A stretch of DNA of 37,530 nt from an uncultured Candidatus Saccharibacteria bacterium. GTDB lineage: Bacteria; Patescibacteriota; Minisyncoccia; Sungbacterales; SURF-37. Under the pieces are notes generated by a model that was not told the origin of the DNA, did no database searches, and saw only the letters and a list, made by a program, of their open reading frames with translations. Positions 179-22,230 of this stretch are shown in pieces (within the stretch, counting starts at the first letter, position 1; every line of letters begins with the position of its first letter). The translations under genes were made by a program, and so were the position numbers. Where the stretch lies: contig CAYIQX010000002.1 in assembly GCA_964365675.1 (NCBI GenBank), positions 1-37,530 of the forward strand. Direction: 5' to 3'.

Positions 179-1360
179 CTAAAGCGGATTCCGTGCTCCC
201 CGTACCTCAAAGTGAACATGGCATCCGGTAGAGTTGCCCGATGAGCCAAGGAGTCCAATGGTCTCGCCTTGGCGCACACTCTGACCCGGAACTGCGACAA
301 TCTCTTTCAAATGCGCATAAAGGGTCTGGGTGTTGTTGGGATGCGAGATGACAATGTAACGCCCGTATCCTCCATTCCAGCCGCTGGAACGAGCCGCCAA
401 GACCTGTCCATCGGCCGAGGCGAGTATGGACTGGCCGCAGGAGTTGGCGAGATCCACACCATTGTATCCATGAATACCTCGCGAACGGCGCCCGCCGATA
501 ACCGGCCGGACGTAGTATCCGTCAAACACGGGTAAGTTCGCGAATGCGCGCGGTGCGGGGAGAGAGGAAGAGATGGGTGCGGCCTCACGAAGCTCACCGT
601 TCGGGATGATGAGCGAGGCGCCGAGGAGGAGGTGCTCGTCCGGCGCCAATCCGTTGAATTTCAAAATATCGTCGATGGCAGCGTTATATTTCTTGGCAAT
701 GGAGGCAATCGTCTCGCCCTTTTTCACCTCATGCTTCACCCCCGATACGGGCAGGATGATGATCTGATCGCCCGTCTTCAAGGAACGCACATTGGCAATG
801 TTGTTGGCCCAAAGAATGGTGTTGACCGATACGTCAAAGGACTTGGCTATGCCGGCAAGCGTATCGCCGGGCCGGATCGTATACAGGAAGATCTGCCCGG
901 CCGGCGTCACATCATTGGCGACCGTCCCCACGGGATTTAATGGCGCTATGAGGGCGTTCTCCTGAATAACGGGGAGGCCGCCTGAGTCGTTCTCGTCATC
1001 CCCTCCGCTCGGGGGACGGTTTTCGGCCCCGAGAGCAGAAGCGGCGGCCGCGGTCCCTGTTCGCGGCACGAATGCCGGCAAGCCGTCCTCCACTTCGGAA
1101 GGAACGGCATTAAAAAAACGCGCCAGCATCGAGAAGAACCCCGCGTGCGAAGATCGAGGCAGGAGGAGTACGCTTAGCGCCAGAAAAGCAGCCAATCCAA
1201 CGGCAAAACCCCCCTTAAAAGTCAAAAGCTTCTCTGGAGAAAGAAGCGTTTTCGATCGATTTAGCTCGATTTTCTGGTCCCTGACCCCTAGCGGGAAAAC
1301 GGCGGACTCTGAAGGGCCAGGCAGGCGTTCGGTATAAATAGCAGGATCTTTCCGGGGCAA
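179..1360 (-). CDS. Secreted or membrane-anchored M23 (LytM-type) metallopeptidase with two LysM domains
   Basis: There is an N-terminal hydrophobic anchor (GGFAVGLAAFLALSVLLLP). Two LysM-like units are present (YTIRPGDTLAGIAKSF...ILP and HEVKKGETIASIAKKY...IIP). The C-terminal M23 signature is GVDLA...GYGRYIVISHPNNTQTLYAHL...GSSGNSTGCHVHFEV. The longest ORF starts at TTG 1360. An in-frame TTG at 1225 (MTFKGGFAV...) would give a more natural signal peptide, so the start is uncertain. Confidence 0.9.
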   Translation of the reverse strand: MPRKDPAIYTERLPGPSESAVFPLGVRDQKIELNRSKTLLSPEKLLTFKGGFAVGLAAFLALSVLLLPRSSHAGFFSMLARFFNAVPSEVEDGLPAFVPRTGTAAAASALGAENRPPSGGDDENDSGGLPVIQENALIAPLNPVGTVANDVTPAGQIFLYTIRPGDTLAGIAKSFDVSVNTILWANNIANVRSLKTGDQIIILPVSGVKHEVKKGETIASIAKKYNAAIDDILKFNGLAPDEHLLLGASLIIPNGELREAAPISSSLPAPRAFANLPVFDGYYVRPVIGGRRSRGIHGYNGVDLANSCGQSILASADGQVLAARSSGWNGGYGRYIVISHPNNTQTLYAHLKEIVAVPGQSVRQGETIGLLGSSGNSTGCHVHFEVRGARNPL

Positions 1361-1481: not shown

Positions 1482-1598
1482 TCCGCCCTGTACACAGCAC
1501 TCGCTATCGGTCGAGAGCGTTCCACTAGCGCCGGATTGGTGGGGAAGGCCTTTTTTGCTAGGATACGGCCACTCATGCCGGAAAAAAAGGAAAATCCC

Positions 1599-4500: not shown

Positions 4501-4652
4501 AGCGACTGTATCTGACCTGGGCCATCACCCGTACGCTTTTCGGCGAGCGCGAGGTCAACATGCCGTCGCGGTTCTTACGAGAACTGCCCTCCGAGATGGT
4601 TGAAGGGAATTTCAACCCAGACGAGGAATTGATCATCGTTGATGAGTCATGA
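1599..4652 (+). CDS. uvrD: UvrD/PcrA-family SF1 DNA helicase, interrupted by an intein
   Basis: Motifs seen: Walker A AGPGSGKT, DEYQDT, motif III GDDAQ/SIYSWRQA split by the insert, YRSTPEIL, LYRTNAQSR, MTLHAAKGLEF and YVGMTRAKERLYL. The ORF opens at TTG 1536. ATG 1599 (MLAGLNERQQEAI) is preceded by AAAGGA and matches the usual UvrD N-terminus; ATG 1575 is an alternative start. Confidence 0.93.
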   Translation: MLAGLNERQQEAILTIEGPVLVIAGPGSGKTRALTHRIAFLLASGIPARRILALTFTNKAAEEMRERVGKLLRNHPSSLPFTPSAASLLTGFIGTFHSFAAFLLRHEAAKIGYRREFTIYDEDDRMALLKELMKELSIPKHISATAAAAVISDLKSGLIAPDEYEGRNAADPFGRAVAKIYETYQERLRFSNAMDFDDLIFHAVRLLRDQPAVRERWQKRFSHIHVDEYQDTSLSQYEFVRLLAREHRNLFAIGDDAQCLPPGTLIHTPNGKKPIERITVGDQVISAAGFGKAMISRVTRVHRREGSEPLIHVTTRTNKRLTLTTGHMVFAKLTVDPNLYYIYLMERIDKGFRIGHTRGVRGGTRNGMRVLVNGLQIRANQEAADKIWILKAVRTREEAVLHEQLFAFKYGVPTTVFYDKGRNISLSQKSINLLFSAIDSRAGARQIFKDLRLSPGHPHHRPKGVTRAVAHAPIRHRAVIDVCYFGGSQPSERYPWHDHRISLVSASPALEERLRGLGQWSIREAKAGSKSWRIETARKDYHECREFVRTLAATGNLEIHEKARLTADEGNFDLMPASNLQPGMVIPILSEKGIQQELIETIEEKPYTGPLYDLSVENTHNYAANGIIAHNSIYSWRQADYRNILNFERDWPEAKVILLEENYRSTPEILHAANTLIAKNQDQKPKSLWTKNPSGGRPEVRAHEHERAEAGFIAGEIFSLRRQGYAWRECAVLYRTNAQSRAIEEALIEYGIPYTIIGGIRFFARREVKDLVAYLRYLTNPDDTLALKRIINVPTRGIGPKTFLKYLSKETRGLLIKDRRSIAAFDTAITRLGGALGEKTLAEFLRFLIKTIRYEEYLADSRDGESRIENIRELVSVARKYDALPTREAIVRLLEEVALLSADDEVKTGDERVRLMTLHAAKGLEFSAVFMTGLEEGLLPHAKSITGSRAELEEERRLAYVGMTRAKERLYLTWAITRTLFGEREVNMPSRFLRELPSEMVEGNFNPDEELIIVDES
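2373..3491 (+). mobile_element. Intein (373 aa) inserted in helicase motif III of UvrD
   Basis: The insert starts with Cys (CLPPGTLIHTPNG, block A). Block B is TLTTGHMVF. It ends ...NGIIAHN, followed by the +1 Ser. Removing 2373-3491 restores GDDAQ-SIYSWRQA in frame. A central region of roughly 230 aa lies between the splicing blocks. Confidence 0.9.
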
Positions 4653-5555: not shown

Positions 5556-6560
5556 ATGGGCATACTGGCCCAGGGCGTTTTTGCCTTGAGACGCAAGAAA
5601 AAAATCCTTGTCGCGGTTTTAGTATTGCTCGGCACGGCGGGCGTGCTGATTTTACTGTCCCAGAAATACCGTCCCGCGACCGTCCCCTCAGCGCTCCGGA
5701 CCAAAGACCCGGCCTTGGCCCATAAGATCGCGGCCGAGGCGGCGAAAGACAGTGACCAAGACGGTCTCAAAGATTGGGAGGAAGCGATCTGGCAGACCAA
5801 CATGCACAAAGCCGACAGCGATGGCGATGGCACGCCGGATGGCGAGGAAGTCGCCCAAAACCGTGACCCGCGCCTCGCCGGTCCGAACGATACACATACG
5901 GCCTCCCCTGAAACCGGTGGTATAGAAACGGATAAACCTACGCCGGAAAACTTGACCGCGCAGGTGGGGGCGCGGATCGCAACTGATGTTCTCTCGAACA
6001 TCAACCAAGGAGGCGTTGGATCCGAAGAACTGATAAATGAATACGCCGGAGATCTTGCGGCGGTGCAGGTGCTTGATGGCGCAGAGGTTTTTTCAGCACG
6101 CGCTCTTGCGCCCGCGAAGGACAACGATCTTCTCACTACCGTAAAATTTCTCTCTGCAATCGAGGAGGTATGGCAGAAATATTTCAAAGCCGGCCAGCCC
6201 TCCGACCTTGAGGTATTTTTCAACGCGTTCGAGAACGGCGACGGCTCAACCGCTCCGGCGGAACTTGAGCACTATATCACCGGTTATGGCGAGGCCATCC
6301 GCGTCATCCGGACAACGCCGGTCCCGAAGGACCTTCAAAAAACCGCTCTTGAGTTCCTGAACTATCTTTCCCGCATCCGCCGCTCGGCCGAGCTCATGAA
6401 AAACTTTCAGTCCGACCCCCTCTCGGCCATGCTCGCGGTCCGCGAGCGCCTGGCGCTGAATCAGGAGTTCGGTGATTTCATTCAACGGACGATAGCGGAA
6501 GCGGAAAAAATTATCAGCAAAGGGGTTTCCGAATTACAACCACAGTCCGCGAAAAAATGA
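5556..6560 (+). CDS. Membrane-anchored protein with thrombospondin-type-3-like Ca-binding repeats (T4SS-like operon gene 1)
   Basis: There is an N-terminal TM (ILVAVLVLLGTAGVLILL). Repeats DSDQDGLKDWEE and DSDGDGTPDGEE are present. The rest is helical with no family I recognise. Confidence 0.7.
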   Translation: MGILAQGVFALRRKKKILVAVLVLLGTAGVLILLSQKYRPATVPSALRTKDPALAHKIAAEAAKDSDQDGLKDWEEAIWQTNMHKADSDGDGTPDGEEVAQNRDPRLAGPNDTHTASPETGGIETDKPTPENLTAQVGARIATDVLSNINQGGVGSEELINEYAGDLAAVQVLDGAEVFSARALAPAKDNDLLTTVKFLSAIEEVWQKYFKAGQPSDLEVFFNAFENGDGSTAPAELEHYITGYGEAIRVIRTTPVPKDLQKTALEFLNYLSRIRRSAELMKNFQSDPLSAMLAVRERLALNQEFGDFIQRTIAEAEKIISKGVSELQPQSAKK

Positions 6561-6561
6561 C

Positions 6562-7590
6562 ATGAAATGGCTTCCCAAAACCATTCTTCATCAAGCGGTA
6601 GTTATCCTACTCTCCTTTGCAATTATTGGACCGGTTGCAATACCGTTCTTACCGCTTATAGCGCGCGCCGAAAGCGAGTTCGATGCGGAGCAAGAAGCGG
6701 AACTCGATCCTTCACTGGTCGAAGAGCCCGAAGAAGAAGGCGACATAACCAAAAAGCCGAATCCTATAGGCTGTTTAAGCAATCTGGCGGCCGCTGCGGC
6801 TACTGCAGGCGGCTGGTTCACGGGTGGACTTGCGGTACTAGATCTCACCAACCTTGCCTCCACCATCTATGGCTGTGTCCAAACAGCGCTGGGAGCAGTA
6901 TCCGGCACTGTTACCTCCGGCGGCGTCGGCTACCTGGTCTCAAAGTCAAAAGCCGATGCGATTGCAACTACGCTTCTGAAAACCACCATCAACGTCGTGC
7001 GGGACATGATCATCCGCTGGATCCTGACGGGACGATTCGAGGGGCCGGTATTTTCTGCAAGCTTCGCCATTGATGTCCGCCGCGCCGCCGAAAACGCTTC
7101 CCGAGCTATTTTGCAGGAAGTAACCTCACTCCCTATTTGTGCGGGCCTGCCCTCTCCGCCGCCCCAGGCATTCTTCAACGTGCGGCTGAGGGATCTCTCC
7201 TGTTCGTTCAACGACCTGGAGCGATTTCGGAAAGGCGAAATCTTCGATTACGACCTTCTCGCGCTCAGCGAGGCGGAAGAAAACGATTATTGGAACCGGA
7301 CCATGTTCATTCTTGATCAAAAACTTATCGCCGAAGCGGCGGCCCGGGAATCATTCACTGAAGATTACCGTGCCGGCCGGGGATTCCTTTGCATACGGGA
7401 CGAGAAGGGCAGGTGCACCACTCCGGGCAGTGCCGTGGGAGAACTGGTAATGGACCAGGTCATTCGCGGCCCGCGAGAAGAGGGAACGGTGGCTCAAACC
7501 ACCCAGCAGGCCATTGGCGCCATCATTGATACGGCCATCCGCGTGGTCATTGAAAAGGGACTGGGCGGCGTATTTGGACCAAGTAGATGA
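6562..7590 (+). CDS. Cys-containing secreted or membrane protein, function unknown (operon gene 2)
   Basis: There is an N-terminal TM/signal, then an acidic stretch and a Gly/Ala-rich segment. Six Cys residues are present. The gap to the upstream gene is 1 nt, and an ATGA overlap links it to the downstream gene. Confidence 0.7.
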   Translation: MKWLPKTILHQAVVILLSFAIIGPVAIPFLPLIARAESEFDAEQEAELDPSLVEEPEEEGDITKKPNPIGCLSNLAAAAATAGGWFTGGLAVLDLTNLASTIYGCVQTALGAVSGTVTSGGVGYLVSKSKADAIATTLLKTTINVVRDMIIRWILTGRFEGPVFSASFAIDVRRAAENASRAILQEVTSLPICAGLPSPPPQAFFNVRLRDLSCSFNDLERFRKGEIFDYDLLALSEAEENDYWNRTMFILDQKLIAEAAARESFTEDYRAGRGFLCIRDEKGRCTTPGSAVGELVMDQVIRGPREEGTVAQTTQQAIGAIIDTAIRVVIEKGLGGVFGPSR

Positions 7591-9194
7591 TCCATTTATC
7601 CAAAACTAGGAAATTTGCCATGGCTGCTCCCCTGTTCTTCGTGGGGGCGTTGATAATTCTGCTGACCGCTCTACCTCAGGTTGGCCAAGCACTCACCGCA
7701 GAAGAAATTGAACAACTTGATCGGGCGGCAAGCACAGCTGATGAGCGCACACCCGAACAAAGGGCTGCGGCAAAAGAGGTCCTGGACGCCACTACCAAGA
7801 CCGGAGGAACAAGCAGTGAGAAAACCGCTGGCTGTGGTTGGCTGTCGGGCCCTGGCTGCTTTTTCACTAATTTTTTGGATCTCATCTCGGATATTGGAAT
7901 CCAATTCCTCGTGCGCCTCGCCGGATTCTTTTTCGACTACTCGATGCAGTATGCCCTGACCGACATCCGGGAAACGGAATTTGTCTCGCTTGGTTTCAGG
8001 ATCACGCTTGGCGTCGCCAACATGTTCTTCGTGCTCATCCTCCTTTGGATCGCCATCGCCACCATCTTCGATTTTGAGCCCTACACGGCGCGCTCCCTTC
8101 TGCTCAAGCTCATCATGGCGGCCCTCTTCATCAACTTCAGCCTGCCCATAGGCGCGGCATTCATTAATCTTGGCAATGGAGTTGCACGGGTTTTCTATGA
8201 ACGCTGTTGTCCCGACGGCAAAGCGGCCAAAAAATTCATCCAAATATCGAAATTCCAGATTCTCAAGGACACTACCCCTGGGCTTGGTGCCGGAGCAGAA
8301 CTCTTAAAACTTGAAGAACCGCAAAGCATCCCCGCCACTTTCCGAGGATCCATTTCCTCGGCGTTATGGAAAATCATCCTCTCGCCCTTCCTTATTTTCG
8401 TCCTTTTTGCCGGCGCCATCTTCGTATTTCTCCGCCAAATACACCTCGCCTTTCTCTTGGTGCTCGGCCCCCTTGCTTTTCTTTCCATGATCCTGCCGGC
8501 TACGCAGCGCTTCTATACCGGCTGGTGGGAGCGCCTCATAAAGTGGTCTTTCTTTTTGCCGGCTTTTACATTTTTCCTTTTCCTTGCGCTGGAAACCGGA
8601 GGAAATCTCCTCACGGTTTCCTACCGCTCGCCGGGGGCCGACAAGGGCATCCCGTTCTTCTTCCAATACTTCATGGTGTTAGCGCTCCTCCTGGGCTCAT
8701 TAACCGCTGCAAACCAGATGTCGTTCCACGGCGCCGCAACCGTGTTGGGCTGGGGAAAAAGCATGGCCAAGGGGACTCGCGGGTGGGCGAAGCGGAAGGG
8801 GTGGAAATACGCCGCCGGCTTGGTTACCGGTCCTGCAGTAGCGAAGGTTCCGGGTGGACGCTACTTAATGCGCCTCCCGGGGATACGCCAGGCGATGGTC
8901 GCAACGACCCAAAAAGGACGCGGTATCGCAAAGAAAGAGATGGAATTTTACTCGAAACTCGGCGACAGCGATCTTATCCCGACCTTACAGGGCATGCGTG
9001 GCGGGCTTGCCAAACAGGTGCTCCAATCGCTCCCGGGAAAACGGTATCACAGCGCCAAGGCAGAACATAAGCCAAGATATGAAGAACTTTACAAAAAATT
9101 TGGCATGGACCTCCCGAAGAAGAAAACAACTGAAGAACGGCTCGATGATGCGGAAGGAGACATTGAGGGTATTAAAAGCGAAGCGCCATCTTAA
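7587..9194 (+). CDS. Polytopic membrane protein, VirB6/TrbL-like
   Basis: A signal/TM is followed by at least 6 hydrophobic helices (e.g. VANMFFVLILLWIAIATIF, LIMAALFINFSLPIGAAFI, ILSPFLIFVLFAGAIFVFL) and a Lys-rich cytoplasmic tail. The gene sits next to PrgI and VirB4 genes. The family call comes from topology and context, not from a conserved motif. Confidence 0.55.
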   Translation: MIHLSKTRKFAMAAPLFFVGALIILLTALPQVGQALTAEEIEQLDRAASTADERTPEQRAAAKEVLDATTKTGGTSSEKTAGCGWLSGPGCFFTNFLDLISDIGIQFLVRLAGFFFDYSMQYALTDIRETEFVSLGFRITLGVANMFFVLILLWIAIATIFDFEPYTARSLLLKLIMAALFINFSLPIGAAFINLGNGVARVFYERCCPDGKAAKKFIQISKFQILKDTTPGLGAGAELLKLEEPQSIPATFRGSISSALWKIILSPFLIFVLFAGAIFVFLRQIHLAFLLVLGPLAFLSMILPATQRFYTGWWERLIKWSFFLPAFTFFLFLALETGGNLLTVSYRSPGADKGIPFFFQYFMVLALLLGSLTAANQMSFHGAATVLGWGKSMAKGTRGWAKRKGWKYAAGLVTGPAVAKVPGGRYLMRLPGIRQAMVATTQKGRGIAKKEMEFYSKLGDSDLIPTLQGMRGGLAKQVLQSLPGKRYHSAKAEHKPRYEELYKKFGMDLPKKKTTEERLDDAEGDIEGIKSEAPS

Positions 9195-9208
9195 GCTTAT
9201 CTTTCGCA

Positions 9209-10366
9209 ATGGGTATGGAGACCGCTTCTAGTGTCCAGCAAATCATAGGGAAGAAGTTCGAATTCTTCCCCGATGACCTTAAGTCCGTGGTGGGGACTAC
9301 ACCACTTGCAAATATTATTTTCCAGGTAGGAAGGGACCACGGCCTGGCTATCGATAAAATCGGTTACTTGAGCGAAGTCGTCGGCGATTTTTTGGCCGGA
9401 GATATTGAGGCAAAGGACATCATACCGACCATCCAGGACCGTCTTTCTCTCTCGATAGAAAAGAGTAGAGAGATTGCAAAGGGGATCAACCGCCTCGTAT
9501 TTAGACCTCTCAGGGAAAAACTACGCGGATTATCCGAAAGACCATCAAGTGCAACGCCAGTGCCGCCGGCCGTATCGCCCACAATGCCGCCTCCATCATT
9601 CAGAGTTACGCCGCCGCCCCAGGTCCCGAAATCGCAACCGCTTGAAATTTCTAAACCCGAAACGTCTCGAAGGCCCGAGCCGCTTATTATCCGCCCGCTC
9701 CCCTCCTCCCGACCAGTTTACGAGACCCCAAGATCAACATCGGCAAAAACCGCCGGAGAAAACAAATGGCCGATCAGTGATATCAACGGAGGTACTCCGC
9801 CGAAACCTTCTGTTCCCCTCTCTGTCCCCATCACCGGAACAGCGCCTCGCACGGCCGAGAAGCCGGCGGTTGTACCGACGCCCGTGGAGCATCTCCCAAT
9901 GCCGATGCCCGCCGGAGCATCCGCACCCGTCATTAGACCATTCGGGGTTCACCCACCCCCACCAGCGTCAAAAACAGAAATGCTGTCACAACCGCCTTCG
10001 CCCCCCCAGAAAACTGAACTTCAAAAACCCCCGCCGCCCGCGGCGGCATACAATCGCGTCAAGGAGCAGGTTGAAAAGGAACTGGCGGCATTCAGGTCCA
10101 TACCCGCCCCTGAAAAGCCGCCCGAAGCAAAGCCATTGCCAGTGACTACCAAAGAGCTACTCCGGCAGGAAATCGAAAAATTCAGGACCCCGCCCCCATC
10201 TCCGACAGCCGGCGGGCCGCCGCAGAGACCCGAAGTCCCCAGCACCGAGGCATCCCCGCCGAAAGAACCAGCATCCGCGCCGCTGAAACTTCCCTCGCAG
10301 AAGATTCCCAAACCATCGGCGCCCGAAAAGTACACCACCGATCCATACAAGGAACTGCCGGAGTGA
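9209..10366 (+). CDS. Protein with a ~110-aa helical N-domain and a ~270-aa proline-rich tail (operon gene 4)
   Basis: ATG start. The tail is dominated by P/S/T/A/K/E (PPAVSPTMPPPSFRVTPPPQVPK...). No TM segment is visible. The alternative-frame ORFs are Arg-rich shadows. Confidence 0.65.
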   Translation: MGMETASSVQQIIGKKFEFFPDDLKSVVGTTPLANIIFQVGRDHGLAIDKIGYLSEVVGDFLAGDIEAKDIIPTIQDRLSLSIEKSREIAKGINRLVFRPLREKLRGLSERPSSATPVPPAVSPTMPPPSFRVTPPPQVPKSQPLEISKPETSRRPEPLIIRPLPSSRPVYETPRSTSAKTAGENKWPISDINGGTPPKPSVPLSVPITGTAPRTAEKPAVVPTPVEHLPMPMPAGASAPVIRPFGVHPPPPASKTEMLSQPPSPPQKTELQKPPPPAAAYNRVKEQVEKELAAFRSIPAPEKPPEAKPLPVTTKELLRQEIEKFRTPPPSPTAGGPPQRPEVPSTEASPPKEPASAPLKLPSQKIPKPSAPEKYTTDPYKELPE

Positions 10367-10383
10367 TCCGGGAAGACCGTACC

Positions 10384-10803
10384 ATGCAGCAATTTCAGGT
10401 TCCCCAATTCATCAACATCGAGGACCGCATCATTGGGCCGCTGACGCTTAAGCAGTTTCTGTATCTTCTTGGTGCGGCGGCGATCGGCATAGTGGGATGG
10501 TCATTCCTCCATTTCATTCTTTTTGTCCTTATACCGCTGCCGTTTGCCGGTCTCTTTATCGCGATGGCATTCGTAAAGATCAGTGGGCGCCCTCTTCCCG
10601 AAATTTTTTTTGCCGCAGTCAATTATTACCTCCGGCCGCGACTATACCTCTGGCGAAAAATTCCTGAAAAGAAAAAAATCGCCGCTGTCCCCGCGGCCAA
10701 GGAAGACCTGCTCCTTGCCGGCGTACCGAAATTTTCAAGCTCAAAACTCAACGACCTGGCCTGGAGTTTAGATATCAAGGAACGCCTCGGTAAAGAAAAC
10801 TGA
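10384..10803 (+). CDS. PrgI-family (VirB3-like) T4SS membrane protein
   Basis: MQQFQVPQFINIEDRIIGPLTLKQFLYLLGAAAIG is followed by two TM helices, the characteristic PrgI N-terminus. GTG 10363, overlapping the upstream stop, is an alternative start. Confidence 0.75.
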   Translation: MQQFQVPQFINIEDRIIGPLTLKQFLYLLGAAAIGIVGWSFLHFILFVLIPLPFAGLFIAMAFVKISGRPLPEIFFAAVNYYLRPRLYLWRKIPEKKKIAAVPAAKEDLLLAGVPKFSSSKLNDLAWSLDIKERLGKEN

Positions 10804-10805
10804 TC

Positions 10806-11492
10806 ATGTTCGTCGATAACGCCTCAAAAAAAGCCGCATCTACCGCCGCATCGCAGGAATTTCTGCCCATTGATGCCATACGCGATAACATCGTTCTCCT
10901 GAAGGGGGGCGGGGCACGAGCCGTACTTATGGTCTCCTCGCTCAATTTTGCCCTGAAATCGGAAGAGGAACAGGATGCGCTCGTTTTCCAGTATGAGAAC
11001 TTCCTGAACGCGCTCGACTTCCCCTTGCAACTCATCGTTCAGTCGCGCCATCTGAACATCCGCCCCTATCTCGACATCCTCGTCGAGCGCCGAAAGGAGG
11101 AAACGAACGATCTTCTAAAAATACAGATTGGGGAATACGCCGATTTTGTGAAATCTTTCGTGGAAATGACGAACATCGTGACCAAAACATTTTATGCGGT
11201 CGTCCCGTTCGTCCCATCGGTGGCTGAGCGAAGCAGCGGTTTCCTAAAGGGACTCAGTTTGATGTTCGGCAAATCGGCAAAGCCAGGCGCAAAAGAAGAC
11301 GAGAGCTTCGTCCAGCTGCGGAATCAACTTCTCCAGCGGGTAGACGCAGTCAGCGCCGGCCTTCGCCGCCTGGGCCTTAGAGTCGCTCCGCTCAACACCG
11401 AGGAACTGGTGGAGCTTTTCTACGGCCTGTATAACCCTTCCGAATCACAGCAGATCCGCGAGGACGAGCGTAAGGAAAAAGCAACGATATGA
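10806..11492 (+). CDS. VirB4 N-terminal-domain-like protein (separate ORF)
   Basis: The pattern FLPIDAIRDNIVLLKGGGARAVLMVSSLNFALKSEEEQDALVFQYENFLNAL resembles the N-terminal (CagE/TrbE/VirB-type) region of VirB4 ATPases. It ends in an ATGA overlap with the ATPase ORF. Confidence 0.6.
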   Translation: MFVDNASKKAASTAASQEFLPIDAIRDNIVLLKGGGARAVLMVSSLNFALKSEEEQDALVFQYENFLNALDFPLQLIVQSRHLNIRPYLDILVERRKEETNDLLKIQIGEYADFVKSFVEMTNIVTKTFYAVVPFVPSVAERSSGFLKGLSLMFGKSAKPGAKEDESFVQLRNQLLQRVDAVSAGLRRLGLRVAPLNTEELVELFYGLYNPSESQQIREDERKEKATI

Positions 11493-13339
11493 TACGGATA
11501 CCTTTTTTTGGCGGACAAAAAGGGAGCGCGCCGGAAATACTCTCCGTTTTCCCCGAGCAGATTTACCGGTCGGGCGTAGCCACGCTCCGTGATGTTATTG
11601 CGCCCGCCGCGCTTGAGATCAACCCAAGCTTCCTCCGCCTCGGAGAAAAGTTCGTGCGCACGCTCTTTGTTTTTTCCTACCCCCGCTATCTGAACACCAA
11701 CTGGTTTAGTCCCGTCATCAACCTCGACAAGGTATTCGATATCTCGTTTTTTATTCACCCCGTGGAAACATCAGTCGTACTCTCACAGCTCCGAAAACAA
11801 GTGGCGCGGGTGCAGTCACAGATCTCCATGCGCGAGGAAAAAGGACTGGTGCGGGACCCCATCCTTGATACCGCCTACCGCGATCTCGAAGAACTCCGTG
11901 ATAAACTCCAGCAAGCGCGAGAACGTCTCTTTAACTTTGGCCTCTACCTCTCCGTGTACGGCGCTTCCCTTGAAGAGCTCGACAAGGCCGAAGCGGAGAT
12001 CCGGACCATGCTCGAAGCGCGGTTGGTATACCTGAAGCCCGCGCTCTTCCAGCAGGAAGAGGGCTTTACTTCATCCCTGCCTCTCAACCTCGACCGCCTG
12101 CAGGTGCACAATTACCTGAACTCCGGCCCCATCTCCTCGACGTTCCCCTTTGTCTCTTTTGACTTAACCTCGAACCGCGGCATTCTCTACGGCATAAACC
12201 GGCATAATAACTCTCTCGTACTTTTCGACCGCTTCTCCCTTCCGAACGCTAATTCCGTGACGTTCGCGACGTCAGGCGCCGGCAAGAGCTATGCCACAAA
12301 GCTTGAGATACTGCGCTCCCTTATGTTCGGCGTGGACGTCATCGTCATTGACCCGGAGCGTGAATATCAGTATCTCGCCGAGGCGACCGGCGGCGCATTT
12401 TTCAACATTTCCCTCACTTCGCCAAACCATATAAACCCCTTCGACCTGCCCATTCCGCGGGAAGACGAATCGCCCTCGGACGTGCTCCGCTCGAACATTA
12501 TCAACCTCGTTGGATTTTTCCGGATACTTTTGGGCGGGCTCACGCCGCAGGAGGACGCCCTTCTTGACCGCGCCATTGCCGAAACATACGCGGCGCGCGA
12601 CATCACTCCGGATACCGATTTTGCGTCCGCCGTACCGCCCACGCTTTCGGACCTTGAACTGGTGCTCGCGGCCACGGAGGGCGGTGAAGATCTTGCGGTA
12701 CGACTGAAAAAATATACCGGGGGCACCTGGGCCGGCTTCATCAACCAGCAGACCAACCTGGACGTAAAAAACCGCCTGGTCGTTTTCTCGGTGCGCGACA
12801 TGGAAGAGGAGCTCCGGCCGGTCGCTATGTACATGGTGCTCCACTATATCTGGAATCTCGTCCGTTCCGAACTGAAAAAACGCATCCTGGTCGTAGATGA
12901 GGCCTGGTGGTTGATGCGCTATGAGGACGGCGCCTCATTCCTGTATGGCATCGCCAAGCGCGCCCGGAAGTACTACCTCGGCCTCTCCACTATCACCCAG
13001 GACGTGGCCGACTTTATGGGCTCACCCTACGGCAAGCCGCTGGTAACCAACTCCTCGATGCAGCTACTCCTCCGGCAGTCGCCGGCGACGATCAAGACGG
13101 TCGTTGAAACCTTCAACCTCACCGATGAGGAAAAGTTCCTTCTCCTAGAATCAGAGGTGGGGGAAGGAATATTTTTCGCCGGACTAAAACACGTGGCCAT
13201 TAAAGTCATTGCCTCCTACACCGAAGACCAGGTCATTACCTCTGACCCATCGCAGCTACTGCTTATTAAGAAGTCCAAGGAAGAATTCGCAAAGGTCCAT
13301 AGCTCTGATGCGGTCGAACAGCCGGCTAGCCATGGATGA
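11489..13339 (+). CDS. virB4: VirB4/TraC-family T4SS ATPase
   Basis: Walker A FATSGAGKSYATK and Walker B RILVVDEAWWLM are present. STITQDVADF and the size and layout are typical of monoderm VirB4 homologues. Confidence 0.9.
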   Translation: MIRIPFFGGQKGSAPEILSVFPEQIYRSGVATLRDVIAPAALEINPSFLRLGEKFVRTLFVFSYPRYLNTNWFSPVINLDKVFDISFFIHPVETSVVLSQLRKQVARVQSQISMREEKGLVRDPILDTAYRDLEELRDKLQQARERLFNFGLYLSVYGASLEELDKAEAEIRTMLEARLVYLKPALFQQEEGFTSSLPLNLDRLQVHNYLNSGPISSTFPFVSFDLTSNRGILYGINRHNNSLVLFDRFSLPNANSVTFATSGAGKSYATKLEILRSLMFGVDVIVIDPEREYQYLAEATGGAFFNISLTSPNHINPFDLPIPREDESPSDVLRSNIINLVGFFRILLGGLTPQEDALLDRAIAETYAARDITPDTDFASAVPPTLSDLELVLAATEGGEDLAVRLKKYTGGTWAGFINQQTNLDVKNRLVVFSVRDMEEELRPVAMYMVLHYIWNLVRSELKKRILVVDEAWWLMRYEDGASFLYGIAKRARKYYLGLSTITQDVADFMGSPYGKPLVTNSSMQLLLRQSPATIKTVVETFNLTDEEKFLLLESEVGEGIFFAGLKHVAIKVIASYTEDQVITSDPSQLLLIKKSKEEFAKVHSSDAVEQPASHG

Positions 13340-13835
13340 CGATAGACAAGTAAAAGATACCGCGCGGCGTATTCAGTGGCGAGAAGCCATCGCGCCGCGT
13401 CTCCAGCCGATCGTCACTCGTGTGGCCGGAGCGATCGCCGAGCGACTGAACCGCGAGATCGAAGCTGGCCATGATGCTTCCGTGTTTATCTTTGCGCTTT
13501 GGCTAGCCATCCTAAAGGACGGACTCCTGGATTGGGGCCTCAACCTTATCGGCATCGGCCTTATTCCGATCGTTGGGCAAATACCGGGATGGCTTGTGTC
13601 GGGCATCCTCTACTATTTCCTTTGGGGGAAGGGCTGGTTCCGAAGGACAAAGATCCGTGTCGGTTACTGGGTGCTTGCCCTTTTCTTCGACAACCTGCCC
13701 GGCTTTGAGGAGCTCCCGCTTACGACCATCGAGGTCTGCCTTGCCTGGTGGATGATCCGGCATCGCGCCCGACAGGCAGAGACGGAACTGCGGGCCCATG
13801 AGCAGAAAATGCGTGCTACACTAGAAGCGGGCTAA
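13332..13835 (+). CDS. Small multi-pass membrane protein, unknown function (operon gene 8)
   Basis: ATG 13332 overlaps the virB4 stop (ATGGATGA). There are 3-4 hydrophobic helices (VFIFALWLAILKDGLL, IGIGLIPIVGQIPGWLVSGILYYFLW, VGYWVLALFF, IEVCLAWWMI). The track ORF from 13209 lies inside virB4 and is not credible. Confidence 0.65.
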   Translation: MDDDRQVKDTARRIQWREAIAPRLQPIVTRVAGAIAERLNREIEAGHDASVFIFALWLAILKDGLLDWGLNLIGIGLIPIVGQIPGWLVSGILYYFLWGKGWFRRTKIRVGYWVLALFFDNLPGFEELPLTTIEVCLAWWMIRHRARQAETELRAHEQKMRATLEAG

Positions 13836-13839
13836 TAAA

Positions 13840-15126
13840 ATGACTGCCTCTATACAAAACACACTTCTCCTGCTCCCCGCTGCTGTCCTGACTTTGACTA
13901 TTTCGACTGCGTTCCTGCCCGCGGGCGCCGCGGTAACGCCGATATTCACGCTCCTTGTTTCCCCGGAACTCCCCGTGACCGGCGAACGGGTCACTATTTC
14001 CTCGCTCGCCACGAATTTTACCGCCTCTACGACCGTCTTCACCTGGTTCCGCGAGGACGTAGCCGTGCCCATTGCATCTGGCAAGGGTTTGTCAAAAATA
14101 TCCCTTACCTCGACTCCCCAGGCCAACGGCGCGATGCGAATTCGCCTTGAAGTTGATCCTGGAACGGGCTTCACGCGCAAGAGTGAAACCACTACTATCC
14201 TCGTTCTCCCCTCCAGCGCCGTCAGCGGGGGAGCTGCCGACGAGCAACCCGTCGAAGACTTCACCCTCGAGGCCTCAAGTATAAACCCAGACGCCGGGGA
14301 GACAGTAACCCTTGAAGTGGTCACGTTTGCTTTTGACCGGGCTGTCGCTTCATACCGCTGGTACACTGATGGCGTTCTCCAGCGCGATGCCAGCGGCCGC
14401 GGACGCTCCCGATTTAGTATGCAGGCGGGGAGCGAAGGGACCGCGAAAAATATCCGCATCGAAGTCACTCTGCCGAACGGCAACGTACGCGCCAAAAGCA
14501 CTGTCATCCAAACACTGTCTGCACCCCTCTATTGGTGGACTGATACGGTCGTTCCGTACTGGTACAAAGGTAAGGCCCTCCCCGTCGTCGGCTCCACGGT
14601 GACCATCTTTGCCCTGCCCAACATACGAAATTCGTCCAACGTCTCCCACCAGTGGCGCACGAACGGCTCAGTCGACGTGAGCGCATCGGGAACGGCCAAG
14701 CCAACCTTCTCTTTGCGTCTTAACTTCCCCGTGGCCGAAGAGATCGAGGTCAGCATGCGGGACTCCCTCGGTACGTTTGCCAAAACAGCACGCGTGGAGA
14801 TCGAGCCGGTTCTCCCGAGCGTAGGAGTATACGAGCTTCGGCCGCTCTCGGGGGTGGCATTCGAGCGGTCGCTCAAGGAATTTTCCGCCCCGGCCGGGGA
14901 ACCGTACGACTTTCTTGCTACCCCGTTCTTCTTCCCCCAAGGTCAGTCGCCCCGGTATACATGGACCCTGAACGGTGAACCGATCTCCGGGACATTCACC
15001 AATCCGTGGCGTTTCACGCTGGAGAGCGATCCCGGAGAAACGTCAGTAAACGATCTCCGTCTTGAAGTCGCCGGAGCGCGAAATGCCCAACGCGCGGCAA
15101 GTAACGTCCGCATTAATCTTCGCTAA
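13840..15126 (+). CDS. Secreted protein with four beta-sandwich (Ig/PKD-like) repeats
   Basis: A signal-like N-terminus is present (LLLLPAAVLTLTISTAFLPAGAA). Four units of about 95 aa share the pattern P..GE.VT......, aromatic-x-W-x-x-[DN]G, ...F.L (TWFREDV, YRWYTDGV, HQWRTNGS, YTWTLNGE). Confidence 0.72.
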   Translation: MTASIQNTLLLLPAAVLTLTISTAFLPAGAAVTPIFTLLVSPELPVTGERVTISSLATNFTASTTVFTWFREDVAVPIASGKGLSKISLTSTPQANGAMRIRLEVDPGTGFTRKSETTTILVLPSSAVSGGAADEQPVEDFTLEASSINPDAGETVTLEVVTFAFDRAVASYRWYTDGVLQRDASGRGRSRFSMQAGSEGTAKNIRIEVTLPNGNVRAKSTVIQTLSAPLYWWTDTVVPYWYKGKALPVVGSTVTIFALPNIRNSSNVSHQWRTNGSVDVSASGTAKPTFSLRLNFPVAEEIEVSMRDSLGTFAKTARVEIEPVLPSVGVYELRPLSGVAFERSLKEFSAPAGEPYDFLATPFFFPQGQSPRYTWTLNGEPISGTFTNPWRFTLESDPGETSVNDLRLEVAGARNAQRAASNVRINLR

Positions 15127-15695
15127 TGAAACTTTCTCCTCTTCTTCAAACAGTTGGTACCTCGATCATCCTTTGTACGGCCATTATAGCGCTCGCGTCA
15201 TTGGTGCCGGCCGCATACGCGGCAGACGACCATCCCACGGTCAGAGCCGACGGCACGAGAGAGGGGGGAGGAGGAGAAGGGAGCGGCGGCGGAGGAACAA
15301 AAGATGGTGGCGGAGGTCAAAAAAATCCTGATGTGGCGGGATATCTTACTCAAGTTTACCGCTGGTTCCTTGGATTTATCGGTATTGCCGCTCTCTTCGC
15401 CCTCGTGACCGGCGGCGTACTTTGGATGGCCTCGGGCACGAGCGTCACCGACGTGGGGCGGGCCAAACGGTGGATATCAAATGCCATTTGGGGCATCGTG
15501 CTCGCCGCCGCATCGTTTCTCCTTTTAAAAACTATCAACCCGGAACTCGTCGGGGGATTTGATATCAACGCGGTGATAGACCGGGCAGTGCGCGCTAAAT
15601 TGCAAAAGCCATCGCCGGATACCATCACCCCGGGGCCAAATGTAATCCCGCGAAAGCCCGACCCCGGCGGAGTAAACACGTCAGTCGGAAACTAA
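15126..15695 (+). CDS. VirB2/TrbC-like T4SS pilin candidate
   Basis: There is a signal peptide ending AYA|ADD, then a Gly-rich spacer (GGGGEGSGGGGTKDGGGG). A two-helix hairpin follows (FLGFIGIAALFALVTGGVLWM - basic loop GRAKRW - ISNAIWGIVLAAASFLLL), then a tail of about 50 aa. The TAATG overlaps the upstream gene. Confidence 0.6.
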   Translation: MKLSPLLQTVGTSIILCTAIIALASLVPAAYAADDHPTVRADGTREGGGGEGSGGGGTKDGGGGQKNPDVAGYLTQVYRWFLGFIGIAALFALVTGGVLWMASGTSVTDVGRAKRWISNAIWGIVLAAASFLLLKTINPELVGGFDINAVIDRAVRAKLQKPSPDTITPGPNVIPRKPDPGGVNTSVGN

Positions 15696-15699
15696 ATCC

Positions 15700-16857
15700 A
15701 TGAGCCGCAAGACCTCCATTGCCATCGCCGTCCTCCTGCTGGTAAGCATTGGTGTTGCCGTGTTCTTCTTTTTTGGTTCTCCGGGCAGTCCGTCTGACCA
15801 GCCGCGCTTTGGGAATCTTCCCATTATCGGCGGCCGTGCCCCGCTTCCTCTTCCTCTTCCTCCGCCGCCCGCAAACGGTATACGGCCGGAAGAGGTAGGG
15901 GCACGGCTCCGTCAAATCATTGACAAAAACATACTCGCACCAACCCTCTCCGGGGACCAAAAATCCATCTACTTTGTAGATCGCGCCACCGGCCATCTCA
16001 TGGCAAGTGACTTAGACGGGAATACCGAGACCGCCCTCGCCAACCTTACCGTACTCGAGGCGTTTGAAGGATTCTGGTCGCCGCTGAAAACAAAAATAGC
16101 GCTTTTTTATCACGAGAGCGGCATGGTGAAAAAATTCATAGAGGAAGTAGCCACGGGCACCCCTTCGCGCTTCCTCTCTTCGGATGTTCAAGCGTTTGCC
16201 TGGTCGCCGGACGGGAAAAGCATGGTCTACCTTCTTCGCCAGAATGCGCAAATGAATCTCGTCATTGCCGACCAGCTGAACCGTTCGAGCCGTGTTGTTT
16301 TCTCCACGCCGGTGCCGGACTTCACCCTCCGGTGGATCTCGACAAATACCATACTGCTTGTTTCAAAGCCGTCAGGACTCGCGCCATCGCTCCTCATGCG
16401 TTTTGATGTCGCCGCCCGCCGGGCCGATCCGATCCTCGCGGGCGGGCGGGGGGTCATCACCCTGCCGCTTCCGGACGGTAGCGGATTCGTATTCTCCCAG
16501 TCGTCCGAGCGCGGCGAGGCCCAGCCGCTTATGCTCTACACGTTCAAGGATGCCAAGATCACGCCGCTTAATATAGTCACCCTCGCCGAGAAATGCGCGT
16601 CAGCCCCGGATTCCAAGAACATCTATTGCGGTGTTCCGACCGGCACCATCCGCATTCCATCGCCGGATGAGTGGTACCGTGGCGCGGTTTCTTTTTCCGA
16701 TTCCATCGCCACCATTGATCTCTCTGCCGGCAGTACCCGCGTGCTTCTCGAGAACGGACCCGACCTTGACGTGGTCTCGCCGTTCACGAGCGCCGATGAG
16801 CGTTTCCTTTTCTTTCAGGACAAAAAAACCGGCGCGCTTTGGCGGCTGACGCTATAA
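15700..16857 (+). CDS. Membrane-anchored TolB-like beta-propeller protein (last operon gene)
   Basis: There is an N-terminal TM and a PLPLPLPPPP linker. Repeated propeller-blade-like motifs are present (FAWSPDGKSMVYL, LPDGSGFVFS, SADERFLFF). Confidence 0.7.
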   Translation: MSRKTSIAIAVLLLVSIGVAVFFFFGSPGSPSDQPRFGNLPIIGGRAPLPLPLPPPPANGIRPEEVGARLRQIIDKNILAPTLSGDQKSIYFVDRATGHLMASDLDGNTETALANLTVLEAFEGFWSPLKTKIALFYHESGMVKKFIEEVATGTPSRFLSSDVQAFAWSPDGKSMVYLLRQNAQMNLVIADQLNRSSRVVFSTPVPDFTLRWISTNTILLVSKPSGLAPSLLMRFDVAARRADPILAGGRGVITLPLPDGSGFVFSQSSERGEAQPLMLYTFKDAKITPLNIVTLAEKCASAPDSKNIYCGVPTGTIRIPSPDEWYRGAVSFSDSIATIDLSAGSTRVLLENGPDLDVVSPFTSADERFLFFQDKKTGALWRLTL

Positions 16858-17026: not shown

Positions 17027-17461
17027 TCAGGGGCAGGGACTACTGGACGGCCACACCCAGAGACGCACCACGCCCTGGCCCGTGCGATCGAGAGCCAGGG
17101 AAACCGGATCGCTGAGGCCGAACTTGCCGCGGGCGGGTTTTTCGCCGCCATCGGCGAACCTGATACGAGTTTCCTTGATGTCGGGTCCTCCCAGCGAGTA
17201 GCACCACAGGCCCGGGATGAGATGCTCGATCCTGACCCACTCCCGGCCGTTCAGCTGGATGTCGTAACGAATCGGAGCCCGAGCTGGTAGGGTGCCTGAC
17301 GAGGAAACACCGGGCAGGCTCCTCGCTGGAGCCGGCGTGTCCGTGCCTGAACCGAGCCACGCCACCAGAAACCAGACACCGAACAAGCCCATGAGCACGT
17401 AGGTGACGGCCCATATCCTGCCCCGCGCTGTGCTGAGATTCGGCTTGGGCAAATGCGCCAT
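17027..17461 (-). CDS. Single-pass membrane protein, possible NfeD-like partner of the SPFH protein
   Basis: ATG 17461 is preceded by GGAGG (17475-17471), which lies inside the last codons of the upstream SPFH gene. The layout is an N-terminal TM (IWAVTYVLMGLFGVWFLVAWL), a P/S linker, then a beta-rich domain of about 85 aa. Third codon positions are strongly G/C. The NfeD analogy is inference only. Confidence 0.65.
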   Translation of the reverse strand: MAHLPKPNLSTARGRIWAVTYVLMGLFGVWFLVAWLGSGTDTPAPARSLPGVSSSGTLPARAPIRYDIQLNGREWVRIEHLIPGLWCYSLGGPDIKETRIRFADGGEKPARGKFGLSDPVSLALDRTGQGVVRLWVWPSSSPCP

Positions 17462-17467
17462 GCCGCT

Positions 17468-18412
17468 TCACCTCCCTGTGATCTTGGCAAGAATTTCGGT
17501 GAGCAGTCCCCGAAGCTGTGGGGAGACGTCGAATCTGAACTGCTGTGTGGCTTTCGGCGCTTTGCTTCGCTCTGATTGGATGAGCTCTACGGCCTGATCC
17601 TGGGTCATGAGACCGTCCGCTGTGAGCGCATCGATGCGCGCGGCGATGTGCGTCAGCTCAGTGGTTTCCGCTTCCCGCTGAAGCTCTTCCTGCCGAATTT
17701 TCTCGTACTCATCCTGGACGCTCTTTGGCAGAACAAGCTCGCCGATCAGAACCGTTATGACGTCCACGCCCCAATCGGTTGCCTGCTCGTCTGCCAGCCA
17801 TTGAAGCTCCTCGCGGAGCTCATCGAGCTGATCGTTCACTTCGGCATCGGTGTACCGGCGTATGCCATCCCGGAGAACCTGCTGAGCGAGCTCTACCAAA
17901 CTCTTCTCAATGACCCCTTCGGTGATGGAGAGGCTCTGCGCGGGGTTTGCCACGCGGTACCGGATGACCGACTTTGGCACCGTGATCGGGACGCGGTTCC
18001 GAGAAAGGACCGAGAACGCCGCGACCTCAAGCGCCTTCTCGCGGCAGTCGATCACATCGCTGTCCATGAACGGCCGCGGTAAAAGCCAGTTCAGGCCTTC
18101 CGGTAACTCGAAATGCGCCTCGTGGATTACGACCCGCTCCCCCTGCGTTGGGGTGGTGCGAGCCCTTCTCGCTTGCGCCGGCGCCGGGGTGGGGACGGCG
18201 ACCCCGACTTCCTTTAGCTTCATCATGCGCTTGCCGAGAAAGCTCGGAACCGCACGATGACCAATCGGTATGGCGTGCAGGCCCGCGCCGCCTACGTAGA
18301 CAAACGTAAGGAGCGCAAGGGGCCAGCGGTATGCCTCTGCAGAGACCGCTACAACAACGAGCGCGCCGAGAGCCGCGATCAGGATGCCAAGTACCAGCCG
18401 ATAAACACGCAT
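17468..18412 (-). CDS. SPFH/band-7 (stomatin/prohibitin-like) membrane protein
   Basis: N-terminal TM helices are followed by the SPFH pattern (GLNWLLPRPFMDSDVIDCREKALEV...VPITVPKSVIRYRVANP...DWGVDVITVLIGELVLPKSVQDEYE) and a coiled-coil tail. ATG 18412 is preceded by AGGAGG. ATG 18430 is the longest start. Confidence 0.85.
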   Translation of the reverse strand: MRVYRLVLGILIAALGALVVVAVSAEAYRWPLALLTFVYVGGAGLHAIPIGHRAVPSFLGKRMMKLKEVGVAVPTPAPAQARRARTTPTQGERVVIHEAHFELPEGLNWLLPRPFMDSDVIDCREKALEVAAFSVLSRNRVPITVPKSVIRYRVANPAQSLSITEGVIEKSLVELAQQVLRDGIRRYTDAEVNDQLDELREELQWLADEQATDWGVDVITVLIGELVLPKSVQDEYEKIRQEELQREAETTELTHIAARIDALTADGLMTQDQAVELIQSERSKAPKATQQFRFDVSPQLRGLLTEILAKITGR

Positions 18413-18482
18413 ACTGCCTCCTCTCTGCATCGAGTAAACTCCGTGGATTTGAAGGATTCTTAGTCAAGGTGCTCGCACGAAA

Positions 18483-22039: not shown

Positions 22040-22230
22040 AGAGGGGATTGGTTGTGAATAATAAAGGGAGAAGTTCTATACATAAATATCCTTCTTTTTT
22101 CCTTTTTAATTTATCCACAAACTACTAATAGATATTTCTCATAAGAAAGTATTAAAAAGGAGAATAAAACCAGTATTAATTATTCAATCCCCAGTTTATT
22201 CTTTTTAATAATAGTAATAATAAATAAAGT
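22040..22230. other. Probable oriC: AT-rich unwinding region with DnaA boxes between dnaA and dnaN
   Basis: This 191-nt spacer is very AT-rich in an otherwise GC-rich window. It contains a perfect TTATCCACA and a one-mismatch box TGTGAATAA (22053-22061), plus long A/T runs at 22190-22230. Confidence 0.7.
22111..22119 (+). promoter_or_regulatory. Consensus DnaA box TTATCCACA
   Basis: This is an exact 9/9 match to the canonical DnaA box. Confidence 0.8.

Follow-up and report, generated by a model that had tools for sequence, protein, structure and literature searches.

In the locus described here, the core of a conjugation machine stands close to a bacterial replication origin, with neither a relaxase nor a coupling protein beside it. 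The stretch of DNA analysed (the window) comprises 37,530 nucleotides (nt) of contig CAYIQX010000002.1, and the locus, at 5556-16857, is a run of eleven genes (g1 to g11, in operon order) that includes the components of a type IV secretion system (T4SS). An earlier note, made from the sequence alone, had taken it to be a resident machine and not a conjugative element, and also an under-described system. The locus is very probably a T4SS of the clade found in Patescibacteria. It is a resident, vertically inherited machine, with no adjacent mobility genes here or in the related loci that have enough contig, in agreement with the first of these claims. The second has to be given up, since the same architecture has been published for Patescibacteria (PMC12102498; PMC10633639; PMC12857230): as a kind the system is already known, and what the window adds is a conserved set of accessory genes.

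The eleven open reading frames (ORFs) all lie on the plus strand and follow one another with successive gaps of -8 to +14 nt (Table 1). Overlap junctions can be read directly in the sequence, namely ATGA at 7587 and 11489, ATGGATGA at 13332 and TAATG at 15126, to which a further overlap, GTGA, is added at 10363; the description of a single tightly packed operon with the quoted junctions was therefore verified in both its coordinates and its strings. A gap of 88 nt separates ksgA from g1, and a GC-rich hairpin is found 3' of g11. A promoter scan of the locus returned promoter-like sites at no more than chance level (sigma-70 rules may not hold in this phylum) and a terminator scan of the locus was uninformative.

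Table 1. Coordinates of the operon genes and of neighbouring features in the window, with the evidence for each assignment.
Feature	Position	Strand	Basis
g1, type II membrane-anchored extracellular protein with thrombospondin-type-3 (TSP3) repeats	5556-6560	+	Transmembrane (TM) helix, DxDxDG loops
g2, secreted helical protein with conserved cysteines	6562-7590	+	Probable signal peptide ending ARA(36)
g3, polytopic VirB6/TrbL-family protein with hydrophilic C-terminal tail	7587-9194	+	Profile matches of the syntenic family
g4, cytoplasmic protein without TM segment	9209-10366	+	Alignment A1
g5, PrgI/VirB3-family small membrane protein	10363-10803	+	PF12666, E = 1.1e-9
g6, TrsD-like, detached VirB4 N-terminal domain, 228 amino acids (aa)	10806-11492	+	NCBIfam and alignment to unsplit VirB4
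g7, VirB4 ATPase body, CD1110 / MPF-FATA type	11489-13339	+	NF045971 above curated cut-off
g8, small polytopic membrane protein, 167 aa, invariant Asp and Pro	13332-13835	+	Alignment A6 (25 sequences)
g9, exported protein, four tandem immunoglobulin (Ig)-like beta-sandwich domains	13840-15126	+	AlphaFold2 (AF2) model, predicted local distance difference test (pLDDT) 81.7
g10, VirB2-type T4SS pilin	15126-15695	+	PF18895 family matches, layout
g11, membrane-anchored extracellular TolB-like (PD40) beta-propeller with Pro-rich linker	15700-16857	+	PD40 match
LysM and M23 peptidase	179-1360	-	Peptidase_M23 E = 5e-28, LysM E = 1.6e-22
UvrD/PcrA-type helicase with intein	1536-4652	+
SPFH/Band-7 protein and 144-aa hydrophobic ORF	17027-18430	-
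dnaA-dnaN spacer (likely oriC unwinding region)	22040-22230
PilB-like T2SSE ATPase	30783-32447	-	E = 4.9e-114

Profile searches support the core that the earlier note had named (a VirB6-like protein, a PrgI/VirB3 protein, a VirB4 ATPase and a VirB2-like pilin). The Pfam scans covered the main ORFs of the window, of at least 120 aa, and the NCBIfam scan covered ten operon ORFs. For comparison with other genomes, VirB4 was searched in one genome per species (185,579 species), the best 80 loci were kept and their ORFs were labelled by iterative profile search. The ATPase body g7 scores 343.7 bits against NF045971 (E = 2.1e-102; cut-off 325 bits), covering positions 179-733 of the 752 of this profile, and it also matches the Pfam families P-loop_TraG, AAA_10 and CagE_TrbE_VirB as well as the C-terminal domain of VirB4 in the PDB (4AG5; E = 1.5e-44). 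Both of its Walker motifs, A (SGAGKS) and B (VVDEAW), are intact. The ORF directly upstream, g6, matches the NCBIfam models VirB4_plasma (E = 1.5e-8, profile positions 94-210) and TrsD (E = 6e-4), together with positions 23-104 of the CD1110 profile. Both ORFs can be laid along a single unsplit VirB4 of 783 aa from a Clostridium perfringens plasmid, residues 17-122 of g6 aligning to its residues 24-140 (E = 4e-7) and residues 27-565 of g7 to its residues 207-754 (32% identity). As read from these alignments, VirB4 is split in the window into two ORFs that appear to be translationally coupled; since g6 is a separate ORF next to virB4 in 72 of the 80 related loci, the split is no sequencing frameshift. 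The earlier tally of four core genes and six genes of no assignable function held for the genes it assigned, but it had passed over g6, which is this TrsD-like N-terminal domain of VirB4.

The remaining core genes are identified by their own matches, by those of their families or by both. The small membrane protein g5, whose start codon is either GTG at 10363 or ATG at 10384, scores 39.2 bits against the PrgI profile PF12666 (cut-off 27), and its family is present in 64 of the 80 loci. At least five hydrophobic segments are found in g3, which belongs to a family present in 42 of the 80 loci; PF04610 (TrbL/VirB6) is matched by 10 of the 34 members of this family from syntenic loci, with a best E-value of 1.1e-6, so that g3 is assigned indirectly. 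In the pilin g10 a signal peptide (AYA/AD) is present and the N-terminal region is Gly-rich; aa 75-135 form a hydrophobic hairpin of two helices, and there are also a TINPE motif and a tail some 50 aa long. PF18895 (T4SS_pilin) is matched by 31 of 32 members of its family (best E = 8e-14) and TrbC/VirB2 by 6 of the 32, while g10 itself matches the NCBIfam model of the Mbov_0395 pilin-like family with E = 1.3e-3. Pilin-family proteins of the related loci are between 109 and 983 aa long (for instance L064:4149-6971 and L049:3996-6947), the VirB2 hairpin being often joined to much extra sequence, and many of these loci hold two or three tandem copies (arrays are present in L043 and L048); the window has a single short pilin.

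A gene set of this kind has been described in some depth. In a survey of 3,035 Patescibacteria genomes, their VirB4 proteins formed a monophyletic clade nested in the mating-pair formation (MPF) class MPF-FATA, TrsD was the commonest companion of VirB4, and PrgI/VirB3, VirB6 and VirB2-like pilins were encoded near virB4; the genes usually found around it in Paceibacteria and Microgenomatia were dnaA, dnaN, rnpA, ksgA and rpmH (Quinonero-Coronel et al., 2025; PMC12102498). Epibiotic growth requires a homologous cluster of Saccharibacteria, pilins included, in which no coupling or relaxase protein can be recognised (Wang et al., 2023; PMC10633639); the evidence for essentiality is transposon sequencing (Tn-seq) in S. 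epibionticum (PMC10633639). The T4SS of Patescibacteria is the first T4SS known to be essential to its carrier, and its function is unknown (PMC12857230; PMC11665869). A review of 2025 describes these systems as newcomers of a distinct kind within the T4SS superfamily (PMC12857230), and a perspective of 2024 called their role completely unknown and speculated on effector delivery or on the uptake of nucleotides or DNA (PMC11665869). In Patescibacteria associated with methanogens, T4SS pilins were among the most highly expressed genes of unknown function (PMC10936435).

The window agrees with the published Patescibacteria-clade T4SS, both that of the survey and the S. epibionticum cluster (SEML1_0006-0019; PMC10633639), in having an MPF-FATA-type VirB4 after TrsD and PrgI/VirB3, a VirB6 homolog upstream and a VirB2-like pilin of family PF18895 downstream of VirB4, no relaxase or type IV coupling protein (T4CP) in the cluster, and a chromosomal position beside ksgA, rnpA, dnaA and dnaN. 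It differs in several respects: a single pilin is encoded where Saccharimonadia and Microgenomatia have pilin arrays, and the peptidase and lysozyme genes that follow virB4 in S. epibionticum do not follow it here. As far as the main text and part of the tables of the survey go, the window is also set apart from the published systems by six further fixed genes, g1, g2, g4, g8, g9 and g11 (PMC12102498). These six were not found in its main text or in part of its tables, and propeller, PD40/TolB and TSP3 proteins have no mention in the main text or in part of the supplementary tables. In the example genome of its Table S3, as given in that part, no annotation stands at the positions that separate VirB6 from VirB3, where the equivalent of g4 would lie, or at those that separate VirB4 from VirB2 (PMC12102498).

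The comparison of related loci places the operon among the chromosomal genes of this group. All of the best 80 VirB4 relatives, with 57-90% identity, come from metagenome-assembled genomes of Patescibacteria type; the titles of a few records differ (for example 'uncultured Gammaproteobacteria') and were taken to be automatic labels. The nearest named relative is from Candidatus Sungiibacteriota, and others are from Azam-, Portnoy-, Yanofsky-, Nealson-, Jorgensen- and Kuenenbacteria. No public contig was returned when VirB4 was searched by exact sequence. The recurring order is ksgA, g1 to g9, the pilin and g11, followed by (jag), yidC, rnpA, dnaA and dnaN. Among 32 loci with enough flanking sequence, all eleven families are present in identical order in six species and ten of the eleven, in order, in nine species; at least six species other than that of the window thus have the operon at the same site, which answers the question whether the 11-gene order is repeated in related genomes. 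The gene dnaA lies within reach in 38 of the 49 loci that have at least 9 kb downstream. As the same families recur in the same order across species-level genomes of Patescibacteria, the arrangement is not due to chance, and the fixed housekeeping site, kept in many species despite the divergence of VirB4, points to vertical descent. In other Paceibacteria lineages the core (g3 to g7 and the pilin) is kept, and unlabelled large ORFs and pilin arrays are found instead of g1, g2, g9 and g11; the extracellular accessory set is therefore modular and lineage-specific. In the lineage of the window, the six accessory genes are co-inherited with the core at the fixed site between ksgA and oriC.

None of these six accessory proteins matches a well-characterised T4SS subunit in Pfam, NCBIfam, PDB profile or Foldseek searches, in line with the claim that six ORFs have no assignable function. 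Four of them are predicted to be wholly or largely extracellular. In g1 a TM helix (about aa 14-38) is followed by calcium-binding DxDxDG loops of the TSP3 type and by a helical C-terminal domain; the match to TSP3_bac (E = 1.7e-4) is under the Pfam cut-off, and calcium-loop proteins were the sole matches in the PDB profile search. An alignment of 19 sequences (A7) shows a DSDxDGLxDWEE...PDTDGDG motif and a conserved helical domain with VP...DP, and the family, present in 18 of the 80 loci, is every time the first gene after ksgA. No Pfam or NCBIfam match was obtained for g2, all 32 homologs of which are hypothetical proteins from Sungbacteria-like sources. Its invariant residues are A36, W153, G157, C193 and C214. 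A Foldseek search of the PDB with its model gave nothing below E = 0.78 and a profile search of PDB sequences gave nothing; a VirB5-like tip protein is one conceivable identity for g2. The homologs of g2 span 275-1700 aa across the related loci, g2 of the window having 342 aa; those of Azambacteria-like loci reach 1500-1700 aa (L014:1141-5673, L017:1196-5761 and L026:1036-6138), and no real Pfam domain was detected in ten of the larger homologs.

The AF2 model of g9 shows a helix at residues 9-24 (signal or anchor) followed by the four beta domains. There is a weak Pfam match to Ig_3, the family occurs in 25 of the 80 loci, and Foldseek against the PDB returned generic multi-Ig adhesion molecules (E about 1e-10) plus complement or macroglobulin domains. 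The identification of g9 as a VirB9- or PrgC-like protein was considered and dropped, since no T4SS subunit is among the top 50 Foldseek matches listed. For g11, 64 homologs were collected, most of them with PF07676, and about 34 of the 80 loci have a member of this family; the best matches of its profile among solved structures are TolB propellers (E = 3e-10). Named homologs of g2, g9 and g11 are also from Sungbacteria. The propeller of g11 is homologous to that of TolB in the Tol-Pal system, but where TolB has its N-terminal domain, g11 has a Pro-rich linker behind a membrane anchor at its N-terminus. No match to the Pal, TolA, TolQ or TolR families was detected among the scanned ORFs of the window, and the organism is thought to be monoderm; g11 thus shares the fold of TolB and not its system.

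The two other accessory proteins lie in the cytoplasm and in the membrane. In g4 some 110 aa at the N-terminus form a conserved helical domain; a variable linker, disordered and rich in Pro, comes next, and the C-terminus carries a conserved motif, D-x-Y-(R/K)-E-(P/L)-(I/P)-E, which in the window reads DPYKELPE (about 10340-10363). Placed after a linker of very variable length, this C-terminal peptide looks like a short linear docking motif. The g4 family is found directly upstream of PrgI in 52 of the 80 loci. The g8 family is present in 25 loci, directly after virB4 in most of them. For both g4 and g8, PDB profile searches and Pfam scans of the individual family members gave scattered chance matches only.

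Beyond Patescibacteria, the core of the operon is that of monoderm conjugation, and the Patescibacteria-clade T4SS derives from monoderm MPF-FATA conjugation machinery. The conjugative systems of this class (pGO1/pSK41 trs, pIP501 tra, pCF10 prg and CTn2/CD1110) share with the window the order PrgI-(TrsD)-VirB4, a polytopic VirB6-like protein and the absence of an outer-membrane core complex, with a VirB4 identity of 28-38%. In contrast to the window they have MobC and a relaxase, a VirD4-like T4CP and a hydrolase of SLT or CHAP type, they have no VirB2 pilin, and their VirB4 is usually unsplit. Bordetella Ptl and Brucella VirB function without a T4CP (PMC12102498) and like the window have VirB2 and VirB4; unlike it, they possess VirB7/9/10 outer-membrane cores, VirB5, VirB8 and VirB11, none of which was detected in the window. 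Nor does the operon show the subunit set of an archaeal Ced (CedA/CedB) or a Helicobacter pylori ComB import system, and no VirB7, VirB8, VirB9 or VirB10 homolog was found in it with Pfam and NCBIfam.

With these components a mechanism can be proposed. A VirB4 hexamer made of g6 and g7 would dock on g5 and g3 at the cytoplasmic membrane and, without a coupling protein or relaxase, would extract the signal-peptide-processed pilin from the membrane, the pilin g10 then being polymerised into a pilus or a short conduit through the monoderm wall. Pili are built in F-type systems with a VirB4 homolog alone and no VirB11, and T-pilus biogenesis is independent of VirD4. The proteins g1, g2, g9 and g11 would form or decorate the part that spans the wall and contacts the host, g8 would be an extra membrane subunit, and g4 may be a cytoplasmic adaptor docking through its conserved C-terminal peptide. 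The machine would serve an episymbiotic lifestyle, in host-cell contact and in the transfer of material to or from the host, and not conjugation. Taken as a whole, the statement that the locus is the Patescibacteria-clade T4SS of Sungbacteria-like Paceibacteria and that it acts in host contact in this manner is considered somewhat better than an even proposition. A more specific proposal is put forward tentatively, as one that we think will probably not hold in full: the six accessory genes would encode lineage-specific structural subunits of a Paceibacteria T4SS variant, and the module would be a distinct architectural subtype for acquiring host material, not for conjugation. Here g1, g2, g9 and g11, with g8 and the pilin, would build a wall-spanning host-contact apparatus that stands in for the outer-membrane core, VirB5 tip and adhesins of known systems, and g4 would be a new adaptor docking on VirB4/TrsD via its D-x-Y-x-E peptide.

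Several observations weigh against the reading of the locus as a host-contact T4SS of this clade. To our knowledge, no pilus from a Patescibacteria T4SS has been seen. Taken alone, g3 of the window has no TrbL match in Pfam, giving a weak TcpE match only, and g10 falls just under the cut-off of PF18895 (26.1 against 26.6 bits, E = 9.1e-6). No VirB8-like protein and no dedicated VirB1-like hydrolase was recognised in the Pfam and NCBIfam scans: neither VirB8 (NTF2-fold) nor VirB1 (SLT/CHAP) had a sequence match, g9 is Ig-like and not NTF2, and g1, g2 and g8 have no confident model. The AF2 model of g2, built from 31 sequences, is helical but of low confidence (pLDDT 56). The functions suggested for g1, g2, g4, g8, g9 and g11 are deduced only from topology, fold class and synteny. 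The placement of VirB4 in the Patescibacteria clade is an identity ranking and not a tree, and the absence of a coupling protein and a relaxase refers to 37.5 kb of the genome, so that both could be encoded elsewhere. Distal VirD4-like homologs are in fact present in most Patescibacteria genomes (PMC12102498), and essentiality is known only from a saccharibacterium with a different accessory gene set (PMC10633639).

These last points bear on the possibility that the locus belongs to a conjugative or mobilising element, or is the decayed remnant of an integrative and conjugative or integrative and mobilisable element, with relaxase, coupling protein and integrase lying outside the window. The descent of the core genes from monoderm conjugation systems and the VirD4-like homologs encoded elsewhere in most Patescibacteria genomes, a few of which also have relaxases, would fit such an origin (PMC12102498). 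Relaxases, however, were found in just 103 of the 3,035 surveyed genomes, and T4CP homologs are mostly distant from virB4 (PMC12102498). In the window itself, as the earlier note had stated, there is no relaxase, VirD4/TraG coupling ATPase, VirB11 or integrase family match among the scanned ORFs, and no notable repeat that could be oriT-like. No tRNA is present in the window, the flanking repeats are chance matches of 16-27 nt with none that is att-like, and there is no strong compositional break (GC content of 0.53-0.59 in the operon and 0.56-0.61 in the flanks). The related loci with enough contig hold no mobility genes within 10 kb on each side of virB4, and no relative is on a viral contig. 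The best plasmid VirB4s, from monoderms, have at most 38% identity; in one of these, the C. perfringens plasmid NZ_CP143494.1 (L081), MobC, a relaxase, a VirD4-like T4CP and an SLT hydrolase surround PrgI-VirB4, the coupling protein sitting two genes upstream of PrgI. Since its ORFs are intact and tightly coupled and its Walker motifs are preserved, the operon is not decayed, and the same housekeeping site is occupied across divergent species, as vertical descent would have it. A mobile or decayed element is accordingly regarded as very improbable.

If the machine is resident, its use need not be the one proposed above. It might import DNA or nucleotides in the manner of ComB or Ced, taking host DNA for a nucleotide-poor organism: Patescibacteria lack de novo nucleotide synthesis, reviewers, pointing to H. 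pylori ComB as a precedent, name their T4SS as a candidate for this uptake (PMC11665869), and import would need neither relaxase nor T4CP, both of which are missing from the locus. The weak NCBIfam matches of g7 to the archaeal DNA-import ATPases CedB (E = 5e-7) and CedD (E = 7e-3) point the same way, but they are limited to the P-loop region and reach 28.6 bits against a cut-off of 700 and 15.1 bits against 600, respectively; moreover, no ComEC, ComEA or DNA-binding component was recognised in the operon with Pfam and NCBIfam. In S. epibionticum, where competence depends on type IV pili and ComEC, comEC is dispensable while the T4SS is essential (PMC12857230), which separates the T4SS from classical transformation only and not from other import. 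On balance, an import machine is judged unlikely. An effector translocator, injecting proteins into a host bacterium or archaeon from Sec-exported substrates as in Ptl and Brucella VirB, is likewise held to be improbable. T4CP-independent protein secretion by T4SSs is known (PMC12102498), effector delivery to host cells has been speculated upon (PMC11665869; PMC10633639), and g2, g9 and g10 carry signal peptides, so that they could be periplasm-like intermediates. Yet the Pfam and NCBIfam scans of the operon and its neighbours recognised no domain of a toxin, an enzyme or an effector-like protein, and the secreted proteins, being conserved together with the machine in different species, look more like structural parts than like effectors of fast turnover, although the size of g2 varies greatly.

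The host-contact T4SS preferred here is set, as the earlier note had indicated, among housekeeping genes close to the origin, between ksgA and the yidC-rnpA-dnaA-dnaN/oriC block. According to the Pfam scan, the upstream flank encodes a LysM-M23 peptidase, an intein-containing UvrD/PcrA helicase and ksgA, and the downstream flank, on the minus strand, an SPFH protein, jag, yidC and rnpA. Beyond rnpA are dnaA, dnaN, a class A penicillin-binding protein, tyrosyl-tRNA synthetase, ruvC, yebC, ruvB and a PilB-like ATPase. The dnaA-dnaN spacer, which is likely the oriC unwinding region, has a GC content of about 29%, against a window mean of about 57%. One DnaA box in it, TTATCCACA at 22111, is perfect, and another, at 22053, has a single mismatch. 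The AT-rich spacer and its DnaA box place oriC; from the end of the operon it is about 3.8 kb to dnaA and about 5 kb to the likely origin. The GC skew across the window tracks the coding strand, being C-rich on both sides of the origin with no clean replication-strand switch, and for this reason the origin was placed by the spacer and the box instead.

Some of these neighbours deserve mention in their own right. A homolog of the LysM-M23 peptidase directly adjoins ksgA and the T4SS genes in at least nine related loci, and virB4-associated VirB1-like proteins with M23 and LysM domains have been noted in Paceibacteria (PMC12102498); the peptidase, 4 kb upstream of the operon, may be a cell-wall hydrolase partner of the machine, that is, a VirB1 analog, or merely a division enzyme, its membership being uncertain. 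The UvrD/PcrA-type helicase carries Hint/intein-splicing domains at about aa 278-652, between the N- and C-terminal helicase halves, and its stop codon overlaps the start of ksgA. The gene of the SPFH/Band-7 protein and the 144-aa hydrophobic ORF beside it, which is possibly an NfeD-like partner, lie between the T4SS operon and jag/yidC, and the pair is found at the same position in only a few relatives. The PilB-like ATPase, whose adjoining ORFs up to about 34500 have no Pfam match, is probably part of the type IV pilus machinery that Patescibacteria typically have.

The window provides a clean and complete example of the Patescibacteria-clade T4SS from Paceibacteria, the largest class, in which a fixed set of accessory genes is inherited with the core across many species. 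The proteins encoded by these accessory genes are candidates for the missing envelope-spanning and host-contact parts of the machine.

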